Shown piece after piece: positions 7,771 through 55,174 of a stretch of DNA of 64,000 nucleotides. Numbering within the stretch: the first letter of the stretch is position 1; each line of letters starts with the position of its first letter. Origin of the DNA: Bacteroidales bacterium. Its GTDB lineage: Bacteria > Bacteroidota > Bacteroidia > Bacteroidales > UBA4417. The position numbers and the translations under genes are program-made. The stretch spans positions 84,637 to 148,636 of the forward strand of contig OY762227.1 of the NCBI GenBank assembly GCA_963665485.1, written 5' to 3'. The notes beneath the pieces were generated by a model. That model was not told the DNA's origin. It made no database searches and was given only the letters and a program-made list of their open reading frames with translations.

Positions 7771-10700
7771 CTATTTATTCCAAACCGGTAATCTTCCGGG
7801 CGTAACCGGCGCTCCCAGTTTTTCAACTTCTTTTTCAAGTTGTAAGATATCAGTTTCACCTATTCGTTTCACCTGTTCATACACCAGTGGAAATTCCGCC
7901 ATTAGTATTTTGTATGCGTCCAATTGCATTTGAGTAGGTGCGCCGGTTGATGCCCAATGAGCCCATGCTATTTTAGAGAGACGGTTATTAAGCGTTACCG
8001 GAGCAGGGGGATTCTCCTCATCGCTGGGTCTGTCGCTGTTGTTATTGAATTTGAGCTTAATATCTTCCAGTTGTTCCGAAACTTTGCTGATACGCGAACG
8101 CAAATCCATATTAGCACCGGGAACAGCGTTCAGGGCTACCTGCAAGGCATATACCCGTTTTGAAAGATTGTCGGCATAATTTTCAGTGCCGTGCATTACA
8201 CGTGAAAGTTCAGCCACTTTCTTCTGAAAATCGGCAACTGCAGCTTTGTCGGAAGCCGGCAAAGTGCTGTTATTTAACGTTAATGCGTTAAACTCAACCG
8301 CATCGGCAAGTTGTTTAACAGTATCACGAACGGTAATTGAAAGGCTAACCTTATATTTGCCTGGCATTACAGGAATTCCACTGTGGGATGCGGCAAAAGG
8401 ATCATACTTCTCCTTTCCTTCAACAGAAGACCTGTCAAGATAGCGTAAATCCCAGTTTATACGATTAATTCCTGAGGAGGGCGCTTTATTGATACGACAA
8501 ATCTCGTTTCCGGTTCCGTCAGTAATAGTAAAAGTAAGGTATGCAGGAACTTCTTCGCGTTCGGCACGTAATTCCATGGCTGTAGGTTGCGGAATCCGTT
8601 CGCCTTTTTCGAATAGTTTTTTCTCGCGTTCCTGGCGCATATCTTTCAGGCTTTTAGGCGCATCTTTCAGATAATAAGTGAAAACGGCTCCGAAGTCAGG
8701 ATTTTTAGCGATAAAATAAGTAGATCCCTGCCCATATTTTGTATCAGATGGAATGTACATCAACGCGTCTTTAACAGGGAAAATATAAGCATCTTTCCGG
8801 AGTAAATCTTTAGTGACAAGGCGCAGTGGCGAATAATCTTCCAGGATATAGAACCCACGTCCAAAGGTTGCAATGGCAAGGTCGCTTTCACGTTTCTGGA
8901 TTGTAATATCGCGTACCGGAATTGAAGGCATTCCATTTGCCAGTTTTACCCATATTTTTCCTCCGTCGTTGCTGAAATAGAAACTGAATTCGGTACCAAC
9001 AAATAGCAGGTCGGGATTAATAAAATCCTGCTGAATGCTGTGTATGGTTTCGTCTTTAGGAAGATTGGCCGCGATGGATGTCCATGTGCGACCTTTGTCA
9101 GTGCTTTTTAAAATATAAGGTTTGAAATCGTCGCGTAAGATATTATCAAAGGAGGCAAACACTATATTTTCGTCGAAACGGGAAGCCATAATATCGCTGA
9201 CATATGTGTTTTCCGGTACACCGGTAAACTTGTCTGTTTTTGACCATGTTTTTCCACCATCGCTGCTTGACTGTATCACACCATCATCGGTACCAACATA
9301 AAGAATGTTTTCCTTTACCGGCGATTCGTCCATCGAAACAATTGTGCCATACAATGAAGTAGATATGTCTTTTGCTACAGCGTCATAGCTCCAGTATTTG
9401 CCCATAACAGGCCAGGTATTACGGTCAATCTGGGCAGTAAGATCTTCGCTGATCACCTGCCAGGTATTTCCGCGGTCGTCGCTGCGGAAAACTTTATTCG
9501 CAGCACAATAAAGGCGGGTTGGTGAATGTGAGCTCAGGATAAGCGGCGTATTCCAGTTCCAGCGGTAAGATAGTTCGTCTTTGCGTGGCTCAGGCCTGAT
9601 ATCAATTGATTCCTGGCTTTTGCGGTCGTAACGGACCATGCCGCCGTATTGTGATTCGGAATACACAATGTTTGGTTCAACGGGATCAACCTGCGACCAG
9701 AAACCGTCGCCACCACAGGTTACAAACCAATCATCGCTTACAACTCCCGATCCGCTGGTATTGCGTGAAGGACCTCCAAAACTGTTGTTGTCCTGTGTTC
9801 CACCATATACATTATAGAAAGGCGCTGAATTATCAACCTGCACACGATACATTTGTGTTACCGGCAGGTTCGACTTGAAGAGAAACTCCTTCCCTCCATC
9901 GAAGGATTCATAAATTCCGCCATCACCACCAATAAACAAGTGCCGGGTATCGGAAGGATCAATCCATATCGCATGGTCATCGACATGACGTTTATTATTA
10001 CCGATGGCTTTCCAGGTTTTGCCGCCATCCTCGGTAAACTGCGAAACGGTTTCGGCCGAATAGATTTTATTTACGTCTTTAGGATCGCAATAAATTTCGT
10101 TGTAATACTGGCCCTGGGCTGAATGGTCGCTTATTTTCTGCCAGCTGGCACCACGGTTGGTACTACGGTAGAATCCACTCGCATCTCCGGCAGCTTCGAT
10201 AATTGCAAAGATATAATCAGGATTCACCGGCGAAATAGCCAACCCTATTCCACCCATATCACCACCGGGAAGACCACTTTTAAGTTTATCCCAGCTTTCA
10301 CCAGCATTGGTTGATTTGTAAATTGCGGTTTCAGGGCCTCCGCCTATTTTGGTAAATACATGCCTGCGGCGCTGTTCGCTGCTGGCATACATTACATCAG
10401 GATTCCGCGGATCGATGAGGATATCATTTACACCTGTATTTTCGCTTATTTCCAGCACTTTCTTCCAGGTTTTACCGCCATCAATGGTTTTATACATTCC
10501 TCGATCGCCACCCGGCCCCCAGGCTGATCCTTCGGCAGCAACAAATACAATATCGCTGTTCCGGGGATCAATAACTATTTTACCTATGTGCTCTGAGGCT
10601 TTGAGTCCCATATTCTTCCACGACTTTCCGCCGTCGGTGCTTTTGTAAACACCATCGCCGTAGCCTAACGCACGCTGGTGGTTATTTTCGCCGGTTCCAA

Positions 10701-11124
10701 CCCAAACTACATTTGTGTTGTTAGGATCGATAACCACAACGCCTATGGAATACGATTTTTGCCCGTCGAAGACAGGCTCAAAAGTGGTTCCGTTGTTGGT
10801 TGTTTTCCATACATGCCCTGAAGCAACGGCTACAAACCATTCGCTATGATTATTGGGATTTACAGCAAAATCAGCAATACGGCCTGATGTAAAAGCCGGG
10901 CCGATGGAACGCCATTTTAATCCTCCGAAATCAGATGATTTTAAGGAATCGGACTTTGCTTCCTGTTTTGAAGATTCCTTTTTTGAAGATTCCTTTTTCA
11001 CAGTTTCATGTTTTACTTTAGCTTTCTGCGCAACAGTGCCGGAGCCTGAAAACATTACAACAACCAGAATTAAAGTTGCTGTTAAGCTTTTGAAGAATTT
11101 AAATGTGTGCTCTTTCATATACAT
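7771..11124 (-). CDS. BNR/Asp-box repeat protein, sortilin/VPS10- or GH74-like double propeller, secreted
   Basis: At least 10 Asp-box motifs (SxDGGxTW: STDGGKSWK, TIDGGKTWK, TEDGGKTWK, SSDGGKTWS, STDKGRTWT, SNDGGKIWV and others). The likely start is the ATG at 11124 (MYMKEHTFKFF...), which is followed by a signal peptide. The 61-codon upstream extension in the ORF track looks non-coding. Confidence 0.85.
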   Translation of the reverse strand: MYMKEHTFKFFKSLTATLILVVVMFSGSGTVAQKAKVKHETVKKESSKKESSKQEAKSDSLKSSDFGGLKWRSIGPAFTSGRIADFAVNPNNHSEWFVAVASGHVWKTTNNGTTFEPVFDGQKSYSIGVVVIDPNNTNVVWVGTGENNHQRALGYGDGVYKSTDGGKSWKNMGLKASEHIGKIVIDPRNSDIVFVAAEGSAWGPGGDRGMYKTIDGGKTWKKVLEISENTGVNDILIDPRNPDVMYASSEQRRRHVFTKIGGGPETAIYKSTNAGESWDKLKSGLPGGDMGGIGLAISPVNPDYIFAIIEAAGDASGFYRSTNRGASWQKISDHSAQGQYYNEIYCDPKDVNKIYSAETVSQFTEDGGKTWKAIGNNKRHVDDHAIWIDPSDTRHLFIGGDGGIYESFDGGKEFLFKSNLPVTQMYRVQVDNSAPFYNVYGGTQDNNSFGGPSRNTSGSGVVSDDWFVTCGGDGFWSQVDPVEPNIVYSESQYGGMVRYDRKSQESIDIRPEPRKDELSYRWNWNTPLILSSHSPTRLYCAANKVFRSDDRGNTWQVISEDLTAQIDRNTWPVMGKYWSYDAVAKDISTSLYGTIVSMDESPVKENILYVGTDDGVIQSSSDGGKTWSKTDKFTGVPENTYVSDIMASRFDENIVFASFDNILRDDFKPYILKSTDKGRTWTSIAANLPKDETIHSIQQDFINPDLLFVGTEFSFYFSNDGGKIWVKLANGMPSIPVRDITIQKRESDLAIATFGRGFYILEDYSPLRLVTKDLLRKDAYIFPVKDALMYIPSDTKYGQGSTYFIAKNPDFGAVFTYYLKDAPKSLKDMRQEREKKLFEKGERIPQPTAMELRAEREEVPAYLTFTITDGTGNEICRINKAPSSGINRINWDLRYLDRSSVEGKEKYDPFAASHSGIPVMPGKYKVSLSITVRDTVKQLADAVEFNALTLNNSTLPASDKAAVADFQKKVAELSRVMHGTENYADNLSKRVYALQVALNAVPGANMDLRSRISKVSEQLEDIKLKFNNNSDRPSDEENPPAPVTLNNRLSKIAWAHWASTGAPTQMQLDAYKILMAEFPLVYEQVKRIGETDILQLEKEVEKLGAPVTPGRLPVWNK

Positions 11125-11318
11125 TCTGAGATTGATTTGTAGAGGATTCAGGCACCTTTGCCTGGAAATTTGTATAAAACCTGTTAATCGTAACAAAGAT
11201 GAAATTTTATTCATTACCAAAGCCAGGAATGCTGTTGAATTATGTAAAAATGCCTCTGCCATCGGTGAAATCATCATAAAATCTGTTAAAATACATTTGA
11301 TGTACAACTATATTCTTC

Positions 11319-11326
11319 TATATTTG
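11319..11326 (+). promoter_or_regulatory. candidate Bacteroidota -7 promoter box (TAnnTTTG)
   Basis: TATATTTG lies 89 nt upstream of the ATG at 11415. A second match, TACATTTG, is at 11292-11299. Confidence 0.3.
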
Positions 11327-11414
11327 TACTTTTATTGATACTTGAATTATTGAAGTCTGTTTAAACAACGTTAGTCCCTTATTCCCCAATTTATAAATTT
11401 ATAATTCTCTGAGT

Positions 11415-12911
11415 ATGAAAAAGATCAAACTGATTGCGCTCTTGCTTATTTCAATGGTTGTATTCTCTTTAAAATCTTCCGTTGCACAAAACACAACGTT
11501 TAAACTTTCGGACTACAAGAATCCGAAATACTTTTACCAGACGCTGGACATGAATTTCGGATTTGGCAACTCTTCAAATATTCAAAAAAACGACAACTCC
11601 TCTGATTTCTACAACCTGAAAAGCTATTTGTCATCAGTAAATGCTCTGGCATATTATTCAGTCTATGCAAATTCACGCAAATCACAAAGTGAGGTTTATG
11701 CTTATTTTAACGGCGGTTTCAGTTCCAGCGCACAAAAAAATCTGTTCGATCTAGCTAACAACGAGTCGAGACAAAGTACATTATCAAATAATGAATCTTT
11801 TTCTTTTGGTGGAACAAAAAGGTTTTATAATGAAAAACAGAATTATTTCGAAATTGGAGGTTCATTTTCAAATAGTCATTCTGGCAATTTGAGTAAGAAT
11901 AAATCGTTGTACAATGATAATATTACCAATCAAACAAAAAACAACTCAAGTACTTTTTATTCTAATTCAGATTTAGCATTGCACATTGGGAAAGGAAGAA
12001 TTGAGCAGGTTCAGGATGCACGCATGGCATTATATTTAATTGAAGATTTGCACCGTATGAACCGGGATAAACGCCCGGCTTCTGATAAAGATGTGCTGGA
12101 GTTGGCTGAACTTATAACCTCTCTGAAGTACAAACGCTTTTTTGATAACCGGCTGCGAAAAATAGCTGAAATCACGGCCATTGACTCCTTTATGCAGCAA
12201 AAAGGAATAGTGAGCTCTACTGATGCCACCTATTTTACTTCGTTAAACGATAATTGGGACTTTGCTAATAACCCGGCAAGGAACAGCGGTTGGCGTGTTT
12301 TCGCTGGTGTTGAAGGGAGTTTTGGTTATAATTATAATAAAGGCCAGGTGGAATACATAAAGCCTTCTCAAAGCACTCAAGATCAATCGTTTGCTAACAA
12401 TAGTCTAAATGTTTATTTAGTTTCAGGAGTGGACTATGAAAAGCCTATTAACCTTAAATGGCAGAATTCGGCATCTATCAAGGCGCGGTTTGGTTCCATG
12501 TCAACTAAATCAACCAACAAAGCTTCGGGTACATCAGATGTTATTAATTACCTCAGCGAATCTCCAACAATGTATCTAAGTGCCAGCTATGGATTTGGGT
12601 ATTATCCAAACTCAAGAACCTGGTTAACCGCAGATTGGACCCTTTCATCAGGGTACAAAAAGCAATTTACAGGTACATCAAAAAGTGATAAAGAAAATTC
12701 AACAAATAGCTTCTTACTTTATACAGGGCCAAGTGCTCATGCTTATTATTATTTGTCTGAAAGACTCAGGTTGAGTATAAACTTTACAGGTTATCTTCAA
12801 CTCAATAATGATAATTATATAACTGATATCCCTGAAAATTCTGATAATAATCAGACCAAAACAGTATGGGATTATCACCTGAATGCCTCGCTTACGTATA
12901 GTTTGTTTTAA
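11415..12911 (+). CDS. putative outer-membrane beta-barrel protein
   Basis: Signal peptide (LISMVVFSLKSSVAQ). The sequence is N/S/Y-rich with alternating-hydrophobicity strands, and it ends in LTYSLF, an aromatic terminus typical of OMP beta-signals. Confidence 0.6.
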   Translation: MKKIKLIALLLISMVVFSLKSSVAQNTTFKLSDYKNPKYFYQTLDMNFGFGNSSNIQKNDNSSDFYNLKSYLSSVNALAYYSVYANSRKSQSEVYAYFNGGFSSSAQKNLFDLANNESRQSTLSNNESFSFGGTKRFYNEKQNYFEIGGSFSNSHSGNLSKNKSLYNDNITNQTKNNSSTFYSNSDLALHIGKGRIEQVQDARMALYLIEDLHRMNRDKRPASDKDVLELAELITSLKYKRFFDNRLRKIAEITAIDSFMQQKGIVSSTDATYFTSLNDNWDFANNPARNSGWRVFAGVEGSFGYNYNKGQVEYIKPSQSTQDQSFANNSLNVYLVSGVDYEKPINLKWQNSASIKARFGSMSTKSTNKASGTSDVINYLSESPTMYLSASYGFGYYPNSRTWLTADWTLSSGYKKQFTGTSKSDKENSTNSFLLYTGPSAHAYYYLSERLRLSINFTGYLQLNNDNYITDIPENSDNNQTKTVWDYHLNASLTYSLF

Positions 12912-13085
12912 ACAAATCTAATTTAAGTCAGGTAAAAAAATTTCCTGATTGTGCTTCACGTAATTGAAAAAAGGGAATTATTCAGCGCAATGCAACCATT
13001 TCGCTGTATAAGATCCCTTTACTGGCATGAAACCGAAGCTAGCGAAGCCGGAAAGCAAAGGGGCGACAAATGGCGATTTAAGAAT

Positions 13086-13093
13086 TACTTTTG
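13086..13093 (+). promoter_or_regulatory. candidate -7 promoter box (TAnnTTTG)
   Basis: TACTTTTG lies 24 nt upstream of the sigma-factor start codon. Confidence 0.3.
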
Positions 13094-13116
13094 TAAAAGG
13101 CTAAACATCTGATGGA

Positions 13117-13677
13117 TTGAGGAACGTTGTACAACTGATTTCCGGGAATAAGAGCGATATTGAGCGGGACCTCGTGCGGGGTTGCACCCGTAACGATCGC
13201 ATTGCCCAGCGCGACCTTTATCACAAGTATTGCGATGCCATGTTCACCATAGCTTACCGCATTGTCAGCAACCGCGATGATGCCCACGACGCACTGCAGG
13301 ATGCCTTTATACAGGTTTTCCGCGATATAGCGCAGTACAGGTTCGATTCCACCTTAGGCGCATGGATCAAGACCATTGTTGTTCGCACTTCGTTGAAATT
13401 GCTTTCGAAAAATCGTAAACTGGCTTTTGCCGATTTGGATGAAACAAAAAGCGATGAAATGATCCTTATCCCTGATACGCTGAACAGTGAATACCTCGAA
13501 AAAATAATTCTTTCGTTACCCGATGGATACAGGACGGTTTTCTTGCTCACCGAGGTTGAAGGCTATAGCCATGAAGAGGCTGCCAAAATGCTTGGCATTT
13601 CAACAGGAACTTCCAAATCGCAATTGCATCACGCAAAGAAAATGCTTAAGAACCGGCTTGCCGCGTTGAATGACTGA
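13117..13677 (+). CDS. ECF-type RNA polymerase sigma-70 family factor
   Basis: Region 2 (RDDAHDALQDAFIQVFRDIAQY) and region 4 HTH (LPDGYRTVFLLTEVEGYSHEEAAKMLGISTGTSKSQLHHAKKMLK) are both recognisable. The start codon is TTG and no in-frame ATG lies upstream. Confidence 0.9.
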   Translation: MRNVVQLISGNKSDIERDLVRGCTRNDRIAQRDLYHKYCDAMFTIAYRIVSNRDDAHDALQDAFIQVFRDIAQYRFDSTLGAWIKTIVVRTSLKLLSKNRKLAFADLDETKSDEMILIPDTLNSEYLEKIILSLPDGYRTVFLLTEVEGYSHEEAAKMLGISTGTSKSQLHHAKKMLKNRLAALND

Positions 13678-46225: not shown

Positions 46226-46936
46226 ATGAAAAAGATACATACAAAATTTTTCGGCCTTATGTTCTTTTTAGTTTTAGCATTGATCATGGCCATCAGCTGC
46301 AAGAAAGATGAAAACAATAATTCACCGGAAACAGTTACTGATGTTGACGGCAACATTTACCATACTGTTACCATTCACGGCCAAACCTGGATGGTTGAGA
46401 ACCTTAAAGTCACCCATTTGAACGATAGTACCACTGCCATTCCAAATGTTACTAACAACACTACCTGGATAGGTTCAACTACCATGGCTTATTGTTGGTA
46501 TAACAACGATGCCTCAAATAAAACCACGTATGGCGCGCTTTACAACTGGTACGCTGTAAATAACAGCAAATTATGCCCTAAAGGCTGGCGTGTGCCTTCC
46601 AAAGATGAATGGAACACCCTGATCTCCAACCTGGGTGGCGACACTACCTTAGTTGGCGGATATTTAAAAGAAGCCGGCACAACACATTGGGTTTCACCAA
46701 ATACAGGCGCCGATAACAGCAGTGGATTTTCGGCACTTCCGGGAGGCAGCTGCTATCATACGAATGGTTCATTCTACTATAATGGAAAATATGGCTGGTA
46801 TTGGAGTTCGACAGGAACCTCAACAACCGAAGCATGGCACATATATGTGAACTATAATACAAGCAGCATATTCGGGAAAACAGGTTCATGGAAAGATGGA
46901 TTTTCGGTCCGTTGTATTAAAGGATTACCTAAATAA
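46226..46936 (+). CDS. FISUMP domain lipoprotein (second copy)
   Basis: Lipobox (MAISC). DVDGNIYHTVTIHGQTWMVENL, LYNWYA, CPKGWRVPSKDEW, GFSVRCIKG. Confidence 0.85.
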   Translation: MKKIHTKFFGLMFFLVLALIMAISCKKDENNNSPETVTDVDGNIYHTVTIHGQTWMVENLKVTHLNDSTTAIPNVTNNTTWIGSTTMAYCWYNNDASNKTTYGALYNWYAVNNSKLCPKGWRVPSKDEWNTLISNLGGDTTLVGGYLKEAGTTHWVSPNTGADNSSGFSALPGGSCYHTNGSFYYNGKYGWYWSSTGTSTTEAWHIYVNYNTSSIFGKTGSWKDGFSVRCIKGLPK

Positions 46937-47148
46937 AAAATGCGGTATTATCAATTTATGATTTGTTTGAGATGAGGTTTCAACAAGATCAAAGGAAGTA
47001 AAACCTGCCGGAAATTATCTGTTAATCTTGATGGGATAAATATTCCGGTTGAGGCTCATTTTGTGAAACGCGTGGCTGGCAACTCTATGACAATGAAAAA
47101 GCTATTTTCAAAATGTACTGTAATCACTGGCTCATATAAACCTGGTAC

Positions 47149-47724
47149 CTATTTTTCAGTATTTTTAGGATTCCTTGAACAATAAACCATATGATCATTT
47201 ACCATACCGGCGGCCTGCATAAACGCATAGCAAATGGTTGATCCTACGAATTTGAAACCTCTTTTGATCAAATCCTTGCTCATGGCATCCGATTCGGTAG
47301 ATTTTGCAGGAATTTCGCTGAGTTTGGCAAAGTGATTGTATTTGGTTGTTCCACCGGTAAACTGCCAGATATACTTATCGAAGGTGCCGAACTCAGACTG
47401 CACCCTGAGAAAAGCCTGTGCATTGGTTACAGTTGAGCGGATTTTTAACTGGTTTTTTATAATGCGCGAATCCTGCATCAGTTCCTGGATTTTATCTTCT
47501 CCATACTTCGAAATTTTAACCACGTCAAAATGATCGAAAGCAGCCCTGAAACCTTCGCGGCGGTGAAGGATAGTTTTCCAGCTCAATCCTGCTTGAAAAG
47601 CATCCAGAATCATAAATTCAAAAAGCTTTTGGTCGTCGTGCAGTGGAACGCCCCATTCGGTATCGTGGTATTCGATCATTAAAGGATCGTTGCCGGGCCA
47701 GTTGCAGGTGTTGAGGGTTTGCAT
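47149..47724 (-). CDS. tag: DNA-3-methyladenine glycosylase I
   Basis: CNWPGNDPLMIEYHDTEWGVPLHDDQKLFEFMILDAFQAGLSWKTIL matches the Tag N-terminal signature, at 191 aa. Confidence 0.92.
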   Translation of the reverse strand: MQTLNTCNWPGNDPLMIEYHDTEWGVPLHDDQKLFEFMILDAFQAGLSWKTILHRREGFRAAFDHFDVVKISKYGEDKIQELMQDSRIIKNQLKIRSTVTNAQAFLRVQSEFGTFDKYIWQFTGGTTKYNHFAKLSEIPAKSTESDAMSKDLIKRGFKFVGSTICYAFMQAAGMVNDHMVYCSRNPKNTEK

Positions 47725-47747
47725 GGGTGGTTGATTTTAGAATTAAG

Positions 47748-47777
47748 GTGCTGAGTGCTATGTGCCTTGTGCTGAGC
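47748..47777 (+). repeat. heptanucleotide (NGTGCTN) microsatellite, solo copy
   Basis: GTGCTGAGTGCTATGTGCCTTGTGCTGAGC sits between the mtnA stop and the tag start. Its first 18 nt are identical to 48855-48872. Confidence 0.85.
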
Positions 47778-47785
47778 GGGAAATG

Positions 47786-48841
47786 TTACTGATTAAAACG
47801 GATCAGATCTTGAGGAGCAATTATGCCTTTCTCAGTGATAAATCCAGTTATAAACCTCGCCGGTGTTACATCAAAGGCCGGATTCAGTGCATGTGATCCA
47901 GGTGAAGCCAGTCGAATAGTACGCATTTTCCCATCTGCATCAGGACCTGAATAATAAAGCACTTCGTCCTCAGTGCGCTCTTCAATCGGAATCATAGCGC
48001 CATCTGTCAACGAGAAATCGATGGTCGAAAATGGAACGGCAACATAAAAAGGGATACCAAATTCCTTGGCTACAATGGCTTTTTCGAAAGTGCCTATTTT
48101 ATTGGCTGTATCGCCGTTGGCAGCAATGCGGTCGGCACCGGTAATCACAAAATCAATCATTCCTTTGCTCATCAAGAAAGCACCGGCATTGTCGGGAACA
48201 ATTTTATGCGGAATTCCTTCGTTTTGAAGTTCCCAGGCTGTAAGGCGAGCACCCTGGTTTCGCGGACGGGTTTCGTCGGCATAAACGAAAAATTCTTTGC
48301 CCTGTTCTTTGGCAATATACATGGGAGCCAGCGCACTTCCATAATCCACAAAACCCAGCCAGCCGGCATTGCAATGGGTTAATATACGGCTGCCGTTTTG
48401 AATAAGTGCGTTTCCATATTCTCCGATTTGCTTCGCATCGGCAATATTTGCTTCAGCAAGTTTCTGCGCTTCGGTCAATGCAGCTTCAGGGCTATTCAAC
48501 CCGGCTTCGTAAACCCTTTCGGTGGCATAAAACAGGTTGCGGGCTGTGGGGCGGGTGGCTTCAATTTCCAGCCTTGCCTTTTCCACGAAGGCTTGATATG
48601 CTGATGAAAATAAGCCAAATTGAAGGTCTGCCTGTACATAAGCCTGCGCCATGGCAAAACCGGCAGCTGCACCAATTGCACCGGCCCCACGGGTAATCAT
48701 GGTGATTATTGAATGACAGGTGTCGGAATAGGATTTTGCTTCGTAGATTTTAAAATTGAATGGTAAGGCATTCTGATCTATCATTAAAACTGATGATCCT
48801 TCCATCCAGATAGTTCTATAGTGCTTGCCTGCTACATTCAT
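47786..48841 (-). CDS. mtnA: S-methyl-5-thioribose-1-phosphate isomerase (eIF-2B alpha/beta/delta-like)
   Basis: Motifs GAGAIGAAAGFA, TRPRNQGARLTAWEL and GADRIAANGDTANKIGT, at 351 aa. Confidence 0.9.
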   Translation of the reverse strand: MNVAGKHYRTIWMEGSSVLMIDQNALPFNFKIYEAKSYSDTCHSIITMITRGAGAIGAAAGFAMAQAYVQADLQFGLFSSAYQAFVEKARLEIEATRPTARNLFYATERVYEAGLNSPEAALTEAQKLAEANIADAKQIGEYGNALIQNGSRILTHCNAGWLGFVDYGSALAPMYIAKEQGKEFFVYADETRPRNQGARLTAWELQNEGIPHKIVPDNAGAFLMSKGMIDFVITGADRIAANGDTANKIGTFEKAIVAKEFGIPFYVAVPFSTIDFSLTDGAMIPIEERTEDEVLYYSGPDADGKMRTIRLASPGSHALNPAFDVTPARFITGFITEKGIIAPQDLIRFNQ

Positions 48842-48846
48842 GTTTT

Positions 48847-48907
48847 AGTGCTGAGTGCTGAGTGCTATGTGCTTTGTGCTTTGTGCTTTGTGCTAAGTGT
48901 TGTGCAG
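48847..48907 (+). repeat. tandem heptanucleotide array (~8.5 units of NGTGCTN)
   Basis: AGTGCTG AGTGCTG AGTGCTA TGTGCTT TGTGCTT TGTGCTT TGTGCTA AGTGTTG TGCAG. It begins 6 nt upstream of the mtnA ATG. Confidence 0.9.
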
Positions 48908-48943
48908 ATAATTAGAAGAATTATGTAACCAGACATAATTGAA

Positions 48944-49321
48944 CTACATACTTTGTGGCTTAGTTCGATAATAATTAATAAATCCGGAAATTAATTTTTT
49001 ACAGTCTTCGACCTTGCTCAAAATGATTGATAAATTTTCTTCGTTAAGATATCCGATATCGTACGAAAGATAAAGCTGAGTTTCGAGCTCATATAACGAT
49101 CCTTTTGAAATGTGCAGAAACTGAACGGTTTCCTTATCATGATTTCGGGCCACACCTTCAGCAATATTGGATGGAATCGAAATCGCAGCTCTTCTCATTT
49201 GGGAAGTAAGCGAATAAACCTCTTCCTTAGGAAAATCTTTTGTTAGAAAATATAATTGTTTAACAAGCTCACGGCTACAGATCCAGGCATTCAGATTTGT
49301 AAATGATTTATTCTCTTTCAT
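48944..49321 (-). CDS. four-helix-bundle protein (23S rRNA intervening-sequence protein family, TIGR02436-like)
   Basis: 125 aa. AAISIPSNIAEG...FLHISKGSLYELETQL is the hallmark pattern of this family. Confidence 0.85.
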   Translation of the reverse strand: MKENKSFTNLNAWICSRELVKQLYFLTKDFPKEEVYSLTSQMRRAAISIPSNIAEGVARNHDKETVQFLHISKGSLYELETQLYLSYDIGYLNEENLSIILSKVEDCKKLISGFINYYRTKPQSM

Positions 49322-49390
49322 GGCATTTTGAATTTGATGAAAATTGGATGTTAGCTATTTTTAAAAAATACGAAAATACCACATTAATTA

Positions 49391-49420
49391 CAAAGCACTA
49401 AGCACATAGCACTAAGCACC
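49391..49420 (-). repeat. heptanucleotide array, inverted copy of 48854-48883
   Basis: The reverse complement, GGTGCTTAGTGCTATGTGCTTAGTGCTTTG, matches 48854-48883 at 27/30 positions. It overlaps the last codons and the TAG stop of the M20 gene. Confidence 0.9.
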
Positions 49421-50641
49421 AAATTCATTACTTTTTAATGCTCCCAACGCCAACCACGCCATCAATCCCATCCCCGTTTCAAGGCTACTTTCATCTGCAT
49501 CAAACTCCGGAGTATGAAGATTACGTATATTTTTCCATTCAGGATTTTTAACTCCCAGACGGTAAAAACATGCCGGAATTATCTGGGTATAATAAGCAAA
49601 ATCTTCGGCTGTCATGCGCTGGTCGAGGTCGACTACATTTTCGGGACCGAGATATTCCTGAGCCAAGGCTTTGGCTTCTGAAGTTGCCAGGTCATCATTT
49701 ACAAGGAACGGATACCCGTGATCGATAAAAACCTCGCACGTTCCGCCCATGCTTTCGGCAATACCGCTGGCCAGTTTTGTGATTTTTTCATGTGCTTTTG
49801 CCCGCCATTCCTCATCGAAGGTGCGGAAAGTACCGTCGATCTTCACTTCCGAAGGAATAATATTGGTGCGTCCATCGGCAATTACCCTACCAAACGAAAG
49901 CACAGTAGGAACTCCCGGAGGCGCTATGCGGCTTACCACTTGTTGAAGAGCAACTATAATATGTGAGGCAATCAAAACGGTATCCGTATTCAGATCAGGT
50001 GTGGCCGAATGGCCTCCCCGACCTTTTATGGTAAGATAAACTTCATCGGTGGAAGCCATATACTTTCCGGATTTAAAGCCAACTTTTCCGGCTTCAAGAG
50101 TTGGTAATACGTGCTGACCTAAAATACGTTCAGGAATTGGGTTTTCAAGCACTCCATCCTTGATCATTGCCAAAGCGCCACCAGGAAATTTCTCTTCCGA
50201 AGGTTGAAAAATAAGCCGGATAGTACCTTCGAATTCGTTCCGAAGTTCATTCAGTATTTTTGATGCTCCAAGCAACGAAGCCATATGAACATCGTGACCA
50301 CAGGCGTGCATCACGCCTGGGTTCTGCGATTTGTAATCGCAGACATTTGACTCAGTTATTGGCAATGCATCCATATCAGCACGAAGCGCCAATGAGGTTG
50401 TGTGGGGCTGTTGACCTTCAATTTTGGCAACAATACCGTTTCCCCCAACTCCGCGGGTATAAGTAATGCCGTAACCATCAAGCGTTTTGCAGATAAAATC
50501 GGCTGTATTAAATTCCTTTTCCGACAATTCAGGATTTGCATGCAGATGCCTGCGAATCTGAATAATTTCAGGAGCTAATTCTGCTGCCAGGGTTTTTATT
50601 TTTTCACTTAATGGGTTCATCATATTTTGAATTTGACTCAT
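49412..50641 (-). CDS. M20 family amidohydrolase (N-acyl-L-amino acid amidohydrolase / hippuricase-like)
   Basis: HACGHDVHMASLLGA, FQPSEE and the GGH..P pattern typical of M20D, at 409 aa. Confidence 0.85.
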   Translation of the reverse strand: MSQIQNMMNPLSEKIKTLAAELAPEIIQIRRHLHANPELSEKEFNTADFICKTLDGYGITYTRGVGGNGIVAKIEGQQPHTTSLALRADMDALPITESNVCDYKSQNPGVMHACGHDVHMASLLGASKILNELRNEFEGTIRLIFQPSEEKFPGGALAMIKDGVLENPIPERILGQHVLPTLEAGKVGFKSGKYMASTDEVYLTIKGRGGHSATPDLNTDTVLIASHIIVALQQVVSRIAPPGVPTVLSFGRVIADGRTNIIPSEVKIDGTFRTFDEEWRAKAHEKITKLASGIAESMGGTCEVFIDHGYPFLVNDDLATSEAKALAQEYLGPENVVDLDQRMTAEDFAYYTQIIPACFYRLGVKNPEWKNIRNLHTPEFDADESSLETGMGLMAWLALGALKSNEFGA

Positions 50642-50679
50642 TGATTGAGTGGAAATATATCTCGGGAACTCCCGGATTA

Positions 50680-51027
50680 CTATTCCAGGTCAAGCGTTAT
50701 TTTAATGTTATCTTTAATTAAATCTTTAAGATCAGCAGGAATATCACCAATCTTTCTGACCAGTCTTTTATTGTCAATAGCTCTGATCTGATCAATCATT
50801 ATATCGCAATTCTCTGACAGGTTTGCCATTCCTTTCCTGAGATGCACACGTAAAATGTCAGCCTCATTTTCAACTTTGGTTGTAATCGGGCAAACAATTG
50901 TTGAAGGATGTGGAAGTTTATTCAGCAGATTTGTCTGAATGATCAATACTGGTCTGGTTTTGCCTGGCTCTGTCCCGATTTGTGGATTTAAGTCTGCTAT
51001 CCAGACCTCAAATTGTCTAATCAGCAT
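50680..51027 (-). CDS. type II toxin, PemK/MazF family endoribonuclease
   Basis: FEVWIADLNPQIGTEPGKTRPVLIIQTN matches the MazF/PemK N-terminal pattern. The ATG at 51027 overlaps the antitoxin 3' end by 11 nt. The track start at 51042 is a TTG. Confidence 0.85.
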   Translation of the reverse strand: MLIRQFEVWIADLNPQIGTEPGKTRPVLIIQTNLLNKLPHPSTIVCPITTKVENEADILRVHLRKGMANLSENCDIMIDQIRAIDNKRLVRKIGDIPADLKDLIKDNIKITLDLE

Positions 51028-51247
51028 AATCAATGCTTTCAAATTCGTTAAGTACGGTTACAGATTCCTTTTCCACCAAAGCAGATTCATATTTTAGTTT
51101 GCTTTCGAGCAGAATTCTCCGCTGATAGCGGTTATAATAATCCAGGGCCTCGTTTATGTAACGATTCCTTGTTTTCTTTATCCGGGAAAGAATTTTCTCA
51201 GTTTCTCCGAATACTGAATCGTCAATTTTTAATGATACAGTTTTCAT
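51017..51247 (-). CDS. putative antitoxin (ribbon-helix-helix-like) of the MazF pair
   Basis: A 76-aa ORF immediately upstream of and overlapping the toxin gene. N-terminal beta strand (KTVSLKIDDSVF) followed by helices (RNRYINEALDYY). Confidence 0.65.
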   Translation of the reverse strand: MKTVSLKIDDSVFGETEKILSRIKKTRNRYINEALDYYNRYQRRILLESKLKYESALVEKESVTVLNEFESIDYAD

Positions 51248-51378
51248 TTTTCAATTAATATATCACAAAGGTATATCAAAAAAGTATATTTTCTTTAAAT
51301 GAAGGGAATAATTTCTGATTTTGAAAAGCTGGCTAACGTTCCCGAATCTGGCGTCATGGCTTGCGTGACTTAGTGTTT

Positions 51379-51768
51379 TTAACCTGGAATTGCTTCCGAA
51401 AGCATTTCCTTTCCTTGCTTATCGTAATATGTACAAGTCATTTCAATTGTACTTACCGTCCATTTTTGAACACCACATTCAGCGGAATGATTACAAAATG
51501 TCATATAGTCAGTCTGTCCTTGCTGGTGAATTTTTAAATATTGTTTAAATTTTTCGGTATCACCTTTATCAGCCACTGTCAACAGGTTGTACTTAGCTTC
51601 CGACTTTGTTTCGAAGTTATTGGTTCCGAAATATTCTCCGTGTCCATCGTAAACGTAAGTGTCATACGTCAGTACACCCAGTTTGATCAGCTCCTGAATA
51701 TATTTTGGAAAGTCGGAACCACTTTTAACTTTTGAATGGGCTTCCTTTATTTGTGAAATGGTAAACAT
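51379..51768 (-). CDS. DUF1398 family protein
   Basis: 129 aa. MFTISQIKEAHSKVKSGSDFPKYIQELIKLGV..YDTYV.DGH is typical of DUF1398. Confidence 0.7.
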   Translation of the reverse strand: MFTISQIKEAHSKVKSGSDFPKYIQELIKLGVLTYDTYVYDGHGEYFGTNNFETKSEAKYNLLTVADKGDTEKFKQYLKIHQQGQTDYMTFCNHSAECGVQKWTVSTIEMTCTYYDKQGKEMLSEAIPG

Positions 51769-51894
51769 ATTCTGTGGGGTTTAATTGTTGATACTGATTT
51801 ATACCGATCATACGCTCAAATTTCAGACTGATAGAACAGTTTAAATGTGGTAAAGTTTGGTAAAACACTGATTCTTCAACTAAACATCACAAAT

Positions 51895-53715
51895 CTACGT
51901 GAACGATTGCATCTCACACAGTTTCTTGTAAATTCCTTCCACAGCAATTAAATCGTGGTGTGTTCCGCGCTGAACAATTTCACCGGCATTGAGAACAATA
52001 ATTTCGTCGGCATGCTGAATGGTTGATAGCCGGTGCGCAATCACCACCGAAGTGCGGTTTTGCATCAGTTTTACCAATGCATCCTGCACCAGGCGTTCGC
52101 TTTCGGTATCCAGCGCCGAAGTAGCTTCGTCGAGGATAAGTACAGGCGGATTTTTCAGAACCGCTCTTGCAATGCTGATGCGCTGCCGCTGTCCGCCCGA
52201 AAGTTTCAGACCACGGTCGCCGATATTGGTGTTGTAACCATCATCCAGTTTCTCAATAAATTCGTGGGCATTGGCAACTTTGGCAGCTGAAATCACTTTC
52301 TCCATAGTAACATTCTTCATGCCGAAAGAAATATTGTCGTAAACAGATCCGTTGAAAAGAATGGTTTCCTGGTTCACAATTCCCATCAGTCCGCGTACAT
52401 CGGCAATGGCAATATCGCGTATTTCGTGACCATCAATCAGCAATTCGCCACCGGTGATATCGTAAAAGCGGGGCAGTAAGTCGACCATAGTCGATTTTCC
52501 GCCGCCCGACTGGCCAACCAGCGCAATTGATTTCCCCTTGGGTATCACAAGGTTAATTCCCTTAAGCACCGGCTCGGTATTGTAACTAAAGGTTACGTTG
52601 CGGTATTCAATACTGTGTTGAAGGTCGCTCACCCTTACCGGGTCTGGTTTTTCAACAATAACTTCTTCGGCTTTCAAAATGTAATCAATCCGATCGAGTG
52701 ACGATGCTCCTTTTTGTATATAAGCGGCGGCTTGCGAAATATCCTTGGCCGGGGGCAGAAGCTGTGAGAAAACGCCAAGGTAAACGATAAACTTGGTTGC
52801 ATCCAGCGAATTGTCGTTTGCCAGGATCAGTCCGCCACCATACCATAAAATTACAGCCGTTACCATAATTCCCAAAAATTCGCTGAGCGGTGAAGCCAGG
52901 TCGCGTTTGCGGATCATGCGCGTTGACACTTTGGCGAAATCCGCGTTCAGTTTCACGAAATTGTTATAACTGAAATTGATGGCATTAAATGCTTTGATGA
53001 TACGGAGGCCGGAAATGGTTTCTTCGATCATAGATACCATATTGCCCATTTTTGACTGCACCTTGTCGGAAGTACGCCGTAGCGAACGGCCTATCCTGCC
53101 AATGATAAACCCTGAAACCGGCAGTACCAGCAGAACAAATATGGTGAGGCTTGGGCTCAGTATAAAAAGAAAAACCAGGTAAGCAACCAACGTAATCGGC
53201 TGGCGGAAAATAATTTCAATCATTTGCAGGATCGACCATTCAACTTCCTGCACATCGCCGGTAATACGTGATATGATATCGCCTTTACGCTGCTCATTAA
53301 AATAGGAGAGTGGCAGTATAAGCGCTTTGTAATAAATGGCATTGCGGAGGTCCTTCACCACCCCGAAACGTAGCACTGCAATAAAAAACATGGCCAGGTA
53401 ACGGAAAAGGTTTTTCAGGAAATAAAGGGCAACCAATAGAATGCAGATATACCCTAGCACCATGTGTTCGCCGTAGGTATGAATGAGCTGGCTCACATAA
53501 AAATTCAGGTTCTGCATAATGGCGTCCTGGTTAAAAGTAAGCGGGGGCGCCGATGTTACCGGTTTCGTCATTTTAAATAATATCTGTAGAATTGGTACGA
53601 GCGCGGCAAACGAAACCAGCGAAAAAAGAATAACCAGTAAATTGCAGATAATATTAATCACGGCATACACCCAGTAAGGTTTTGCGTAACGCATCAGATT
53701 TATGAATCTTCTCAC
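51895..53715 (-). CDS. ABC transporter permease/ATP-binding fusion (MsbA-like exporter)
   Basis: Six-TM N-terminal domain. Walker A (GQSGGGKST), signature (LSGGQRQRISIARA) and Walker B (LILDEATSALD). Confidence 0.9.
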   Translation of the reverse strand: MRRFINLMRYAKPYWVYAVINIICNLLVILFSLVSFAALVPILQILFKMTKPVTSAPPLTFNQDAIMQNLNFYVSQLIHTYGEHMVLGYICILLVALYFLKNLFRYLAMFFIAVLRFGVVKDLRNAIYYKALILPLSYFNEQRKGDIISRITGDVQEVEWSILQMIEIIFRQPITLVAYLVFLFILSPSLTIFVLLVLPVSGFIIGRIGRSLRRTSDKVQSKMGNMVSMIEETISGLRIIKAFNAINFSYNNFVKLNADFAKVSTRMIRKRDLASPLSEFLGIMVTAVILWYGGGLILANDNSLDATKFIVYLGVFSQLLPPAKDISQAAAYIQKGASSLDRIDYILKAEEVIVEKPDPVRVSDLQHSIEYRNVTFSYNTEPVLKGINLVIPKGKSIALVGQSGGGKSTMVDLLPRFYDITGGELLIDGHEIRDIAIADVRGLMGIVNQETILFNGSVYDNISFGMKNVTMEKVISAAKVANAHEFIEKLDDGYNTNIGDRGLKLSGGQRQRISIARAVLKNPPVLILDEATSALDTESERLVQDALVKLMQNRTSVVIAHRLSTIQHADEIIVLNAGEIVQRGTHHDLIAVEGIYKKLCEMQSFT

Positions 53716-53847
53716 GAGAATAGTTTTTTAGAAGAAAAGCAGGTTGTGGTTTTAATTATCCGCAAAATTAACATTTAATGACATTGGTCGGTAAATTTTC
53801 GTTACCGTGCTTTGCGGCACTTTATCACGTATTATTTATAAAATCAG

Positions 53848-53855
53848 TACCTTTG
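53848..53855 (+). promoter_or_regulatory. candidate -7 promoter box (TAnnTTTG) abutting the rbfA start
   Basis: TACCTTTG ends 4 nt before the ATG at 53860. If functional, it implies a leaderless or near-leaderless mRNA. Confidence 0.25.
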
Positions 53856-53859
53856 CCGC

Positions 53860-54201
53860 ATGGAAACAACACGCCAGCAAAAAATTGCACGACTCCTGCA
53901 AAAGGATCTAGGTGAAATATTCCAGGCCATGGGCCGCGATGTATTTCCCGGGAATATGATTACTGTTACAAAGGTTCATGTGTCGCCTGATCTGTTCCTT
54001 GCCAAAGTTTATCTCAGCCTCTTCGGGAAAACTGCTAAACAGGAACTTTTAGATCACATAAAAGTTCACAAAAAAGAAATCAGGTTCGCATTGGGCAACC
54101 GCATTAAAAACCAGGTGCGCTCTATACCGGAACTCGACTTTTTTATCGACGATTCGCTCGACTATATTGAAAATATTGACAATCTGTTGAAAAAGAGCTA
54201 G
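53860..54201 (+). CDS. rbfA: 30S ribosome-binding factor RbfA
   Basis: 113 aa. RQQKIARLLQKDLGEIF....ITVTKVHVSPDLFLAKVYLS is typical of RbfA. Confidence 0.88.
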   Translation: METTRQQKIARLLQKDLGEIFQAMGRDVFPGNMITVTKVHVSPDLFLAKVYLSLFGKTAKQELLDHIKVHKKEIRFALGNRIKNQVRSIPELDFFIDDSLDYIENIDNLLKKS

Positions 54202-54202
54202 G

Positions 54203-54245
54203 AGTCGGAAGACAGAAGTCGGAAGTCGGAAGACAGAAGTCGAAA
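54203..54245 (+). repeat. tandem heptanucleotide array of a second sequence family (AGTCGGA/AGACAGA)
   Basis: AGTCGGA AGACAGA AGTCGGA AGTCGGA AGACAGA AGTCGAA AG. It starts 2 nt after the rbfA stop codon. Confidence 0.85.
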
Positions 54246-54364
54246 GATCACTCGATTTATGAACATTTATCCATTTCAGCTCGCTTTATACGTTTCTCCC
54301 CGCGCCACTTCGCCTTTTACCCCTTCTTAGATTTAATAATTCCTTGAAACATCCTTAAACAAAC

Positions 54365-55174
54365 ATGCAATACGATCCAATCAAACGTTCGCTTGGCAAC
54401 GTTTTTAACAGTACACCATTTTTAAGAAAAGTATTTTATCACTTGCTTGATTTGCTTTTGCTCCGCTCCTGGCATGTTCGCCGCGAATTGAGAAAATGGG
54501 CGGAAGCAGCGGTAAAAAATGCCTCCATACTGGATGCCGGCTCAGGTTTCGGGCAATACGATTTCTATATGTCATCCAAAAATCCAGACTGGAAAATAAG
54601 AGGAGTTGATGTGAAAGACGAGCAGATTGCTGACTGCAACAATTTTTTCAGCCGTATCCATCGTAAGAATGTAACTTTTGCAATCGCTGATCTTACCGCG
54701 TTTACTGATGTTTCGGAATATAACCTTATACTTTCGGTTGATGTTATGGAGCATATACTTGAAGACGTACAGGTATTCCGTAATTTTTATGCTTCACTCC
54801 AGCCAGGTGGAATGGTTTTGATTTCCACACCTTCGGACCAGGGCGGCAGCGATGTTCACGACCATGATGAAGAGGAATCATTTATTGATGAGCATGTCCG
54901 CGATGGTTATAACATCAACGAAATTCAGGAGAAATTAAAACTGGCAGGTTTCCGGCGCACCGAAGCACGTTATCAGTACGGGAAACCGGGACAGCTTAGT
55001 TGGAGGCTATCGATGAAATACCCGATTCTCGCGCTGGGGAAGACTAAACTTTTCTTTATTCTGTTACCATTTTATTACTTAATCACATTCCCGGTTTGCC
55101 TGGTTCTAAATTATCTTGATTCTACCCTGATTCATAAAACAGGAACCGGACTTATTGTGAAAGCATGGAAGTAA
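54365..55174 (+). CDS. class I SAM-dependent methyltransferase
   Basis: Motif I (ILDAGSGFGQY) and post-I/II spacing (DLILSVDVMEHI; LQPGGMVLIS). The C-terminal hydrophobic segment suggests membrane association. Confidence 0.75.
   Translation: MQYDPIKRSLGNVFNSTPFLRKVFYHLLDLLLLRSWHVRRELRKWAEAAVKNASILDAGSGFGQYDFYMSSKNPDWKIRGVDVKDEQIADCNNFFSRIHRKNVTFAIADLTAFTDVSEYNLILSVDVMEHILEDVQVFRNFYASLQPGGMVLISTPSDQGGSDVHDHDEEESFIDEHVRDGYNINEIQEKLKLAGFRRTEARYQYGKPGQLSWRLSMKYPILALGKTKLFFILLPFYYLITFPVCLVLNYLDSTLIHKTGTGLIVKAWK

Follow-up and report, generated by a model that had tools for sequence, protein, structure and literature searches.

What is a small four-helix-bundle (4HB) gene doing at the junction of two housekeeping genes, and what are the repeats that enclose it? 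The question is raised by a locus on the minus strand of contig OY762227.1 from a Bacteroidales bacterium (assembly GCA_963665485.1), within a stretch of 64,000 nt (positions 84,637–148,636; the window), where the 4HB gene lies between an M20 amidohydrolase gene and mtnA in a methionine-salvage operon and is flanked by inverted arrays of a 7-nt unit. We favour, with slightly better than even confidence, the reading that the locus is a resident copy of a widespread promoter-less cassette—an open reading frame (ORF) of the PF05635 family together with inverted 7-nt arrays—which is of the same element type as the intervening sequence (IVS) of 23S rRNA, sits at the stop/start junction of two co-transcribed genes, and would include an arm duplex cut by RNase III. 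The features of the locus, in the order of the transcript, are listed below.

49412–50641, minus strand: M20 amidohydrolase gene, the upstream host gene (TIGR01891 match)
49390–49420, minus strand: 5′ arm (A1), four GTGCTNN units, reading GGTGCTT AGTGCTA TGTGCTT AGTGCTT
49322–49389, minus strand: AT-rich 68-nt spacer from the 5′ arm to the 4HB start codon
48944–49321, minus strand: 4HB gene of 125 aa, PF05635/TIGR02436 (profile matches)
48903–48943, minus strand: 3′ spacer with a 6-bp hairpin, TTATGT..ACATAA (48921–48938)
48845–48902, minus strand: 3′ arm (A2), about eight AGCACNN units, C-rich on the transcript
47786–48841, minus strand: mtnA (S-methyl-5-thioribose-1-phosphate isomerase), the downstream host gene, 351 aa (TIGR00512, 367 bits)
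47748–47773, minus strand: third array (A3), about four AGCACNN/GGCACNN units from the mtnA stop to the tag start, oriented as A2
47149–47724, minus strand: tag, 3′ of mtnA

Along the minus strand, the M20 gene is followed by the 4HB gene, mtnA, and tag. The original prediction, made from the letters of the window, had placed a 125-aa 4HB gene on the same strand between the M20 amidohydrolase gene and mtnA, and these identities were confirmed by profile scores. The 4HB protein reached 122.3 bits against TIGR02436 (cut-off 24) and 127.6 bits against PF05635 (cut-off 33.8, residues 9–113 of 125 covered), which places it in this family; its closest solved structure is that of Xanthomonas XCC0516 (PDB 2GSC, E = 2.7e-23). 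The dN/dS of the ORF against orthologous cassettes was 0.04–0.10, indicating purifying selection. The family is large, with 20,627 cluster representatives at 50% identity, and we know of no role for it outside diversity-generating retroelements (DGRs). The full 125-aa ORF is the version conserved among relatives; a public gene call with an exact match to 48944–49321 (P0055, on a 503-kb contig) has only 76 aa and begins at an internal Met.

Inverted arrays of NGTGCTN had been predicted around the gene, and Tandem Repeats Finder identified period-7 arrays on both sides, at 48845–48899 (7.9 copies) and 49393–49419 (3.9 copies). The best inverted pair joins 48855–48884 with 49390–49419 over 30 nt, 28 of which (93%) are complementary, at a distance of 505 nt; a looser inverted pairing between the arms covers 42 nt at 79%. 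The inverted match as first described (48854–48883 with 49391–49420, 27/30) was thus real, with its position off by one base and its count by one match. With at most one mismatch allowed, the window contains GTGCTNNGTGCT 14 times where 2.2 would be expected, a number reached in 0 of 100 shuffles, and 13 of the 14 matches fall in 47748–49419; the clustering of the GTGCTNN motif is not due to chance.

One arm had been said to provide the stop of the upstream gene and the other to adjoin the start of mtnA, and both statements hold. The M20 stop codon TAG (49414–49412) falls within the first of the 5′ arm's units, and the arm supplies this stop together with the last two sense codons; the arm and the adjoining TGTAATTAA, as read from the sequence, close all three reading frames within 37 nt. 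At the other end, 6 nt separate the 3′ arm from the mtnA ATG. No convincing promoter or terminator was found in the 68-nt spacer, where inspection by eye for a Bacteroidetes-type promoter gave a TAnnTTTG-like element with the wrong spacing, and a terminator search revealed no terminator-like site at or beside either arm. An intrinsic terminator or attenuator (a G+C-rich hairpin with a U tract) was also considered and rejected, the arms lying 505 nt apart.

Folding of the minus-strand transcript, a check proposed with the original prediction, gave the expected arm duplex of ~30 bp: the minimum free energy (MFE) and centroid structures of 48830–49440 both pair the arms (z = −2.55), and the energy predicted for the A1/A2 duplex is −48.3 kcal/mol. 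In these models, RNA pairing of the arms is plausible, and the complementary termini that close an IVS with a long stem have their counterpart in the 30-nt arms (93%). Under the favoured reading, read-through from the host operon would transcribe the cassette. With a stop triplet in every frame, the G/U-rich 5′ arm would end upstream translation whatever its frame, and the C-rich 3′ arm would be left open for the downstream gene. The arms would pair in the transcript into the ~30-bp duplex, which RNase III may cut as in rRNA IVS; such a cut would free the 4HB message and uncouple M20 from mtnA–tag. RNase III processing, or excision at the RNA level, is what we infer for this locus.

Occupied and empty junctions in related genomes

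Contigs with 4HB proteins 86–88% identical to that of the window have kept the synteny rbfA–ABC transporter–M20–4HB–mtnA–tag as well as GTGCT-type arms. Further sites were found by an mtnA homologue look-up, three of them occupied (L087, L088, and L089) and one empty (L090). An empty site had been proposed as a check, and relatives with the gene but no repeats as evidence to the contrary. In L090, M20 is joined directly to mtnA, the M20 stop overlapping the mtnA start (caATGAaa), with neither a 4HB gene nor an array; occupied relatives carry the 4HB gene together with arrays. At all occupied sites the array starts within the last few M20 codons, the stop being inside a GTGCTGA or GTGCTTAG unit, and the second arm ends 0–14 nt before the mtnA ATG (0–6 nt in 4 of 5). 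The outer array ends are thus where the extra DNA begins and stops. The array–ORF–array block is an insertion relative to the empty site, and the lengths of the arrays and the numbers of units vary among relatives.

In a tree built from mtnA and tag and rooted with L091 (200 bootstraps), L090 was nested among cassette-bearing lineages in 200/200 replicates and was sister to L089 in 194/200. Either the cassette was cleanly lost in L090 or it was gained repeatedly at the M20|mtnA junction. L087 shares 92% identity with the window in mtnA and only 75% in the 4HB protein; L001 and L089 share 79–81% in mtnA and 86–87% in the 4HB protein. With only 60% in L088, the 4HB identities to the window span 60–88% across the compared relatives. 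The phylogeny of the 4HB cargo is incongruent with that of the host genes. Presence or absence with exact boundaries, incongruent cargo phylogeny, and variable unit numbers are dynamics at the DNA level. A mobile or excisable RNA-level cassette had been suggested; L090 bears out a discrete block that can be inserted or removed, while the evidence for mobility is on the DNA level and not on that of RNA.

Several other features of this neighbourhood were recorded. In this lineage, mtnA (homologues P0133–P0233) has a hypervariable in-frame insert after ‘AQAF.EG’ with GEGRGA(K)-like 7-aa repeats, encoded in L001 (4698–4728) by a heptamer array GGGGCGA/GGGACGA; the proteins are 350 to 389 aa long, and the window mtnA (351 aa) is without the insert. 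The mtnA|tag spacers of L089 (~4570–4700) and L001 (~5565–5620) contain a ~10-nt repeat of the CAACTNTRAA/TTGAAC type and no AGCAC heptamers. Elsewhere in the window, a solitary period-7 array (54203–54246, AGTCGGA/AGACAGA, ~6 units) begins 1 nt past the stop of rbfA, without an inverted partner or a neighbouring 4HB gene, and its unit is unrelated to GTGCTNN. A shorter array of the same unit family occupies the same place after rbfA in L001 (~120–160).

Between the ABC transporter and M20 genes are three small genes (50680–51768), which encode a MazF-like toxin, a 76-aa product whose gene overlaps that of the toxin, and a 129-aa protein of unknown family. The 76-aa product has no family match and may be an antitoxin. 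The trio is missing at the same position in L001 and L087–L090, which suggests a separate recent insertion. PADLOC gave no defence-system match for the 4HB protein or for the MazF-like and other genes of this trio.

Heptamer arrays beside PF05635 genes

The survey set comprised 80 loci retrieved by a profile of 26 homologues; these loci are the best-scoring subset of the family, with orthologous groups included, and are not independent samples. Most belong to Bacteroidota, and the others to Nitrospirota, Firmicutes, Desulfobacterota, Omnitrophota, Elusimicrobiota, bacteria of the candidate phyla radiation (CPR), and one archaeal metagenome-assembled genome (MAG). The density of period-7 arrays was 2.1/kb within 250 nt of the ORF and 0.135/kb in the remaining 1.14 Mb, a ~16-fold difference. 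Near the ORF, arrays of periods 5, 6, 9, and 10 had densities of 0 to 0.05/kb, and those of periods 8 and 11 had 0.17 and 0.12/kb, respectively. In these loci, the arrays are not equally common at sites unlinked to the gene family, an outcome that the original prediction had named as evidence to the contrary.

Complementarity was scored between the two 200-nt flanks of each ORF in inverted orientation, with a threshold score of at least 12. It was reached at 57 of the 80 loci (71%), and also at 23 of 34 loci on viral contigs. In direct orientation, 15 loci reached a score of 12; with the downstream flank shuffled five times, no locus had a mean of at least 12. The control small ORFs of the same loci reached 12 in 18 of 285 cases (6%), and two of the three top-scoring control ORFs were divergent PF05635 genes. 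The unit varies by locus (GTTGATA, CGTGAAT, GGGACTN, GCTGTTA, GGAGTAA, and others), and the inverted layout is kept.

The cassettes are placed between co-directional genes. The upstream neighbour was co-oriented at 71 of 76 loci and the downstream one at 65 of 73, with median gaps of 58 and 55 nt, and the upstream stop lay inside the arm or at most 30 nt before it at 49 of 54 loci. Junctions recognized repeatedly, by eye from flanking translations, were metH|metF, fadB|fadA, a methylmalonyl-CoA mutase pair, and the linker between the homocysteine (Hcy) and pterin domains of metH. At this linker, in L007 of Winogradskyella (8960–13487) and also in L008, L009, L016, and L025, methionine synthase is encoded as two ORFs with the 4HB cassette exactly between the Hcy and pterin domains; the ATG of the downstream MetH ORF overlaps or abuts the 4HB stop, and the C-rich arm is translated as an N/Q/T-rich peptide. 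In L007 (11600–12015), a DUF559 domain (PF04480, Vsr-like endonuclease) stands in frame within the MetH ORF, between B12-binding_2 and B12-binding, and is bracketed by the inverted repeat CCCCAAAGGGG/CCCCTTTGGGG.

The first-read arm was the G-rich one in 51 of 56 cassettes (p = 1e-10), and all three frames were closed by the first arm at 29 of 57 loci and by the second at 9 of 57. The G-rich-first bias is a property of the hairpin and not a choice of strand, because an inverted repeat reads alike on both strands; for the same reason, the polarity of the arms was dropped as evidence for transcript orientation. Two rationales for this topology may be offered. A stop-bearing 7-nt unit would show a stop in every frame within 21 nt, insulating the cassette from upstream translation, and a C-rich arm emerging second would never be exposed as single-stranded, Rho-attracting RNA.

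Arrays also occur without the gene. Many of the period-7 arrays distant from 4HB ORFs form close inverted pairs with no ORF between them. Repeated 6-mers were shared with the 4HB arms of the same locus by 31 of 107 distant arrays against 4.1 expected (maximum of 15 in 500 permutations). This sharing within loci points to genome-specific unit families, and A3 is such an array in the window. The 4HB cassette is the ORF-bearing form of a wider class of heptamer arrays. The arrays are enriched beside 4HB genes without being confined to them. Other cargo with inverted heptamer-like arms comprised a PDDEXK_3 (PF13366) nuclease-fold gene (L075, 2021–2398) and a PilZ-domain gene flanked by CGCGAAT arrays (L054, 14129–14542), so the arms are not exclusive to PF05635 cargo. 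In L054, an Elusimicrobiota MAG, an internal (CCCTAAA)x7 array (2668–2717, mid-contig) is identical to the plant-type telomere repeat unit.

Comparison with known systems

The closest counterpart is the ORF-bearing 23S rRNA IVS (‘S23p’) of Coxiella burnetii and Leptospira. The IVS of Coxiella carries the S23p ORF, a 28-bp terminal stem, and, where its 5′ region starts, tandem GACAGAT heptamers whose copy number differs between strains; RNase III excises it in vitro, and its 5′ processing site, mapped by rapid amplification of cDNA ends (RACE) on cellular RNA, is at the start of the first repeat (PMC4990558). The window cassette resembles such IVS in its PF05635 cargo, in a terminal stem of ~28–30 bp closing a loop of ~400–500 nt, and in having no evident promoter of its own and presumably being transcribed within the host transcript. 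The IVS-like architecture originally claimed is thereby upheld, down to the heptamers of the Coxiella IVS itself (PMC4990558). There are also differences. IVS lie in helix 25 or 45 of 23S rRNA, whereas the window cassette occupies the mRNA operon junction M20|mtnA, where its arms extend into coding sequence and contribute a stop codon; purifying selection acts on its ORF, in contrast to the decaying ORF of the Coxiella IVS. A conserved 23S motif was found in none of 91 related loci, no Rfam family reached its gathering score anywhere in the window, and a search of 46500–55000 at E ≤ 1 gave no rRNA and only a chance mir-383 match well below the gathering score. With M20 and mtnA as flanks and no rRNA match, the cassette is outside a 23S rRNA gene, the location by which an IVS is defined.

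A second counterpart is found in Xanthomonas. In X. campestris, Rehm et al. (2015) described 186 GGGAATC arrays, 70 of them in close convergent pairs 21–135 nt apart (PMC4692102). The arrays typically have 4 units, are intergenic, follow a stop codon by a few nt in core operons (pairs at groES|groEL, atpA|atpG, atpD|atpC, and ddl|ftsQ), and vary in length between related genomes; all pairs are stated to be convergent, and the pairs inspected in the table agree, with the G-rich arm first (PMC4692102). The window cassette shares with them intergenic, inverted 7-nt arrays and the G-rich arm first; unlike it, the pairs enclose 21–135 nt and no ORF. The GGGAATC repeats were read as G-quadruplex-forming, which GTGCTNN cannot be, and no link to the 4HB family was drawn (PMC4692102). 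XCC0516 (PF05635, 2GSC) is located 6 nt after bccP, and one of these GGGAATC arrays abuts it on the preceding side.

Other heptanucleotide repeats are the cyanobacterial short tandemly repeated repetitive (STRR) sequences and TAACTGA of Beggiatoaceae, Microcystis, and some Bacteroidetes, which have stop triplets in the forward orientation and a function that is unknown (PMC4679880). Unlike the window arms, they are described as direct repeats, with a single inverted set in the Maribeggiatoa genome, and no PF05635 association was reported in the TAACTGA paper or found in its supplement (PMC4679880).

With repetitive extragenic palindromes (REP/REPIN) and their RAYT transposases and with MITEs (miniature transposable elements with inverted repeats), the cassette shares short inverted intergenic repeats, sometimes around a small gene, and a genome-specific sequence; it differs from them in tandem 7-nt arms in place of unique palindromes and in a cargo other than a transposase. 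At 46 loci, no target-site duplication beyond chance was detected, as the longest word common to the two outer array ends averaged 3.37 against a null of 3.40, and the ATGAAT on both sides of the window cassette is an isolated single case. No transposase or integrase was found among the neighbours. Without duplication or adjacent transposase, the cassette falls outside DNA transposons and MITEs. Among the control ORFs with inverted flanks, two were IS200/RAYT-like, but the flanks of both proved to be plain REP hairpins, and a transposase link was rejected. As to integron-type features, the locus is a single cassette between housekeeping genes with no integrase among the neighbours (attC models were not searched).

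Our literature search found no paper tying PF05635/TIGR02436 genes to heptamer arrays except the Coxiella IVS study, and reports beyond the search are possible. As a class, 4HB cassettes with heptamer arms, set at operon junctions in a range of phyla, seem not to have been described. The window locus has the features of this class: period-7 arrays of one unit family on both sides, inverted and with the G-rich arm first, and an insertion in the direction of the host operon, at a junction that is empty in a relative and with boundaries at the array ends. It is an ordinary member of its class.

Weighing the explanations

Several results weigh against the favoured reading, in addition to the composition of the survey set. 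The first concerns A3, which was overlooked by the original prediction, has the AGCAC orientation without a partner of its own, and is also found in L087 and L088. It pairs with the 5′ arm at −45.3 kcal/mol, almost as well as A2, and the MFE fold of the 1.77-kb transcript pairs the 5′ arm with A3 and not with the proximal A2. Since A3 is a rival partner of the 5′ arm, a loop holding the 4HB ORF alone is not the only one that the duplex may close; of the predicted duplex and its ~500-nt loop with the ORF, the pairing of the arms stands. The second is a G·U wobble test on 57 stems (1627 positions), in which 39 G·U, 52 A·C, and 133 transversions were counted. Without an excess of G·U, the RNA-level stem is left without direct sequence support and selection on RNA pairing is not demonstrated; the complementarity of the arms may simply follow from both sharing one unit. 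Furthermore, 23 of the 80 loci are without detectable complementary arms, and 136 period-7 arrays, unevenly spread, lie more than 250 nt from any 4HB ORF. In view of arrays and pairs so far from 4HB genes, the arms may serve a purpose that does not involve the ORF. Finally, neither a target-site duplication nor a transposase points to a mechanism of insertion.

The wobble result bears on an explanation that we consider possible though unlikely, in which the arrays are protein-binding sites. The heptamers, as single- or double-stranded RNA or DNA, would be bound by the 4HB protein, an Avd-like pentamer, or by a host factor. Such binding would autoregulate or protect the cassette or help propagate the arrays, the complementarity of the arms being a by-product of the shared recognition unit. 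The missing wobble signature of RNA pairing, the recurrence of GTGCTNN at the partnerless A3, the strong purifying selection on the 4HB protein, and the genome-specific units that distant arrays have in common with the 4HB arms of their own locus (31/107) speak for it. The related Avd is a pentamer that binds nucleic acid and reverse transcriptase (RT) (PMC10053308). However, common descent or gene conversion would lead one to expect such sharing of units in one genome just as well, and the window array at 54203–54246 has an unrelated unit. Moreover, the inverted arrangement is far commoner than the direct one (57 vs 15 loci), which a simple binding-site model does not require.

It is rather improbable, in our estimation, that the arms act at the DNA level alone, as termini of a mobile or deletion-prone element whose hairpin or cruciform ends serve an unknown recombination or repair pathway, with the RNA duplex incidental. 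The clean presence or absence with boundaries at array ends, the loss in the nested lineage L090, the incongruent cargo, the cassettes at many unrelated junctions and in viral contigs, and the lack of an RNA-specific wobble signal would all be accounted for. So would the fixed topology, G-rich arm first on either strand in 51/56 cassettes, to which the convergent Xanthomonas pairs may be added (PMC4692102). Against this explanation stand the absent target-site duplications, a neighbourhood without transposase or integrase, and the RAYT-like genes at two loci, which have ordinary REP hairpins and not heptamer arms. The strong co-orientation with host operons, in turn, points to a need for transcription.

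That the arrays are ordinary slippage-born simple-sequence repeats at intercistronic sites, beside the 4HB gene by coincidence or hitch-hiking, is disfavoured and very improbable. In many bacteria, heptanucleotides are indeed the commonest long class of simple-sequence repeat (as cited in PMC4679880 and PMC4692102), array lengths differ between relatives, and arrays occur within genes too, as in the mtnA loop. Slippage would not account for the ~16-fold enrichment beside PF05635 genes, complementary flanks at 71% of loci vs 6% of control ORFs, an inverted layout conserved while the unit changes, or the joint disappearance of arrays and ORF at the L090 empty site. Hardly credible, and rejected, is that the gene is the Avd accessory protein of a DGR and the repeats parts of it: PF05635 and bAvd are related, with a homologous 4HB fold, but the Avd scores (NF033474, 27.2 bits; PF22296, 24 bits) are far below the cut-offs (80 and 40, respectively), the context is a metabolic operon with housekeeping genes at the flanks, and no RT or template/variable repeat pair was found among the neighbours here or in six syntenic contigs.

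A bolder reading is also conceivable, which we regard as doubtful. Inverted heptamer arrays and PF05635 genes would make up an unrecognized kind of cassette, without a promoter and set at operon junctions, that is moved or removed as a whole. An Avd-like pentamer would aid its maintenance or spread, for example by recognizing the genome-specific heptamer or by bringing in a polymerase or a repair activity to add G-rich repeats on either side of a break; arrays that are solitary, and pairs that hold no ORF, would represent copies that have decayed or are non-autonomous. If this were true, the heptanucleotide excess (STRR, GGGAATC, and TAACTGA) and the ORF-bearing rRNA IVS would be footprints of one element family.

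To our knowledge, no explanation has been accepted for heptanucleotide repeats, which in many bacteria exceed all other long simple repeats in over-representation, and rRNA IVS have been called selfish elements for 30 years with no known way of spreading. The locus and its relatives tie together the rRNA IVS, the heptanucleotide excess, and the function of the 4HB family. One protein family with one repeat architecture is found at rRNA helices and at mRNA operon junctions, with a clean gain/loss polymorphism. Through the arms, the upstream gene acquires a different C-terminus and the downstream gene, in some cases, a different N-terminus, and in Flavobacteriia the cassette lies exactly at the interdomain linker dividing the halves of methionine synthase. 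At the M20|mtnA junction, as modelled, the arms of the cassette would replace translational coupling through the ATGA overlap by a long hairpin.

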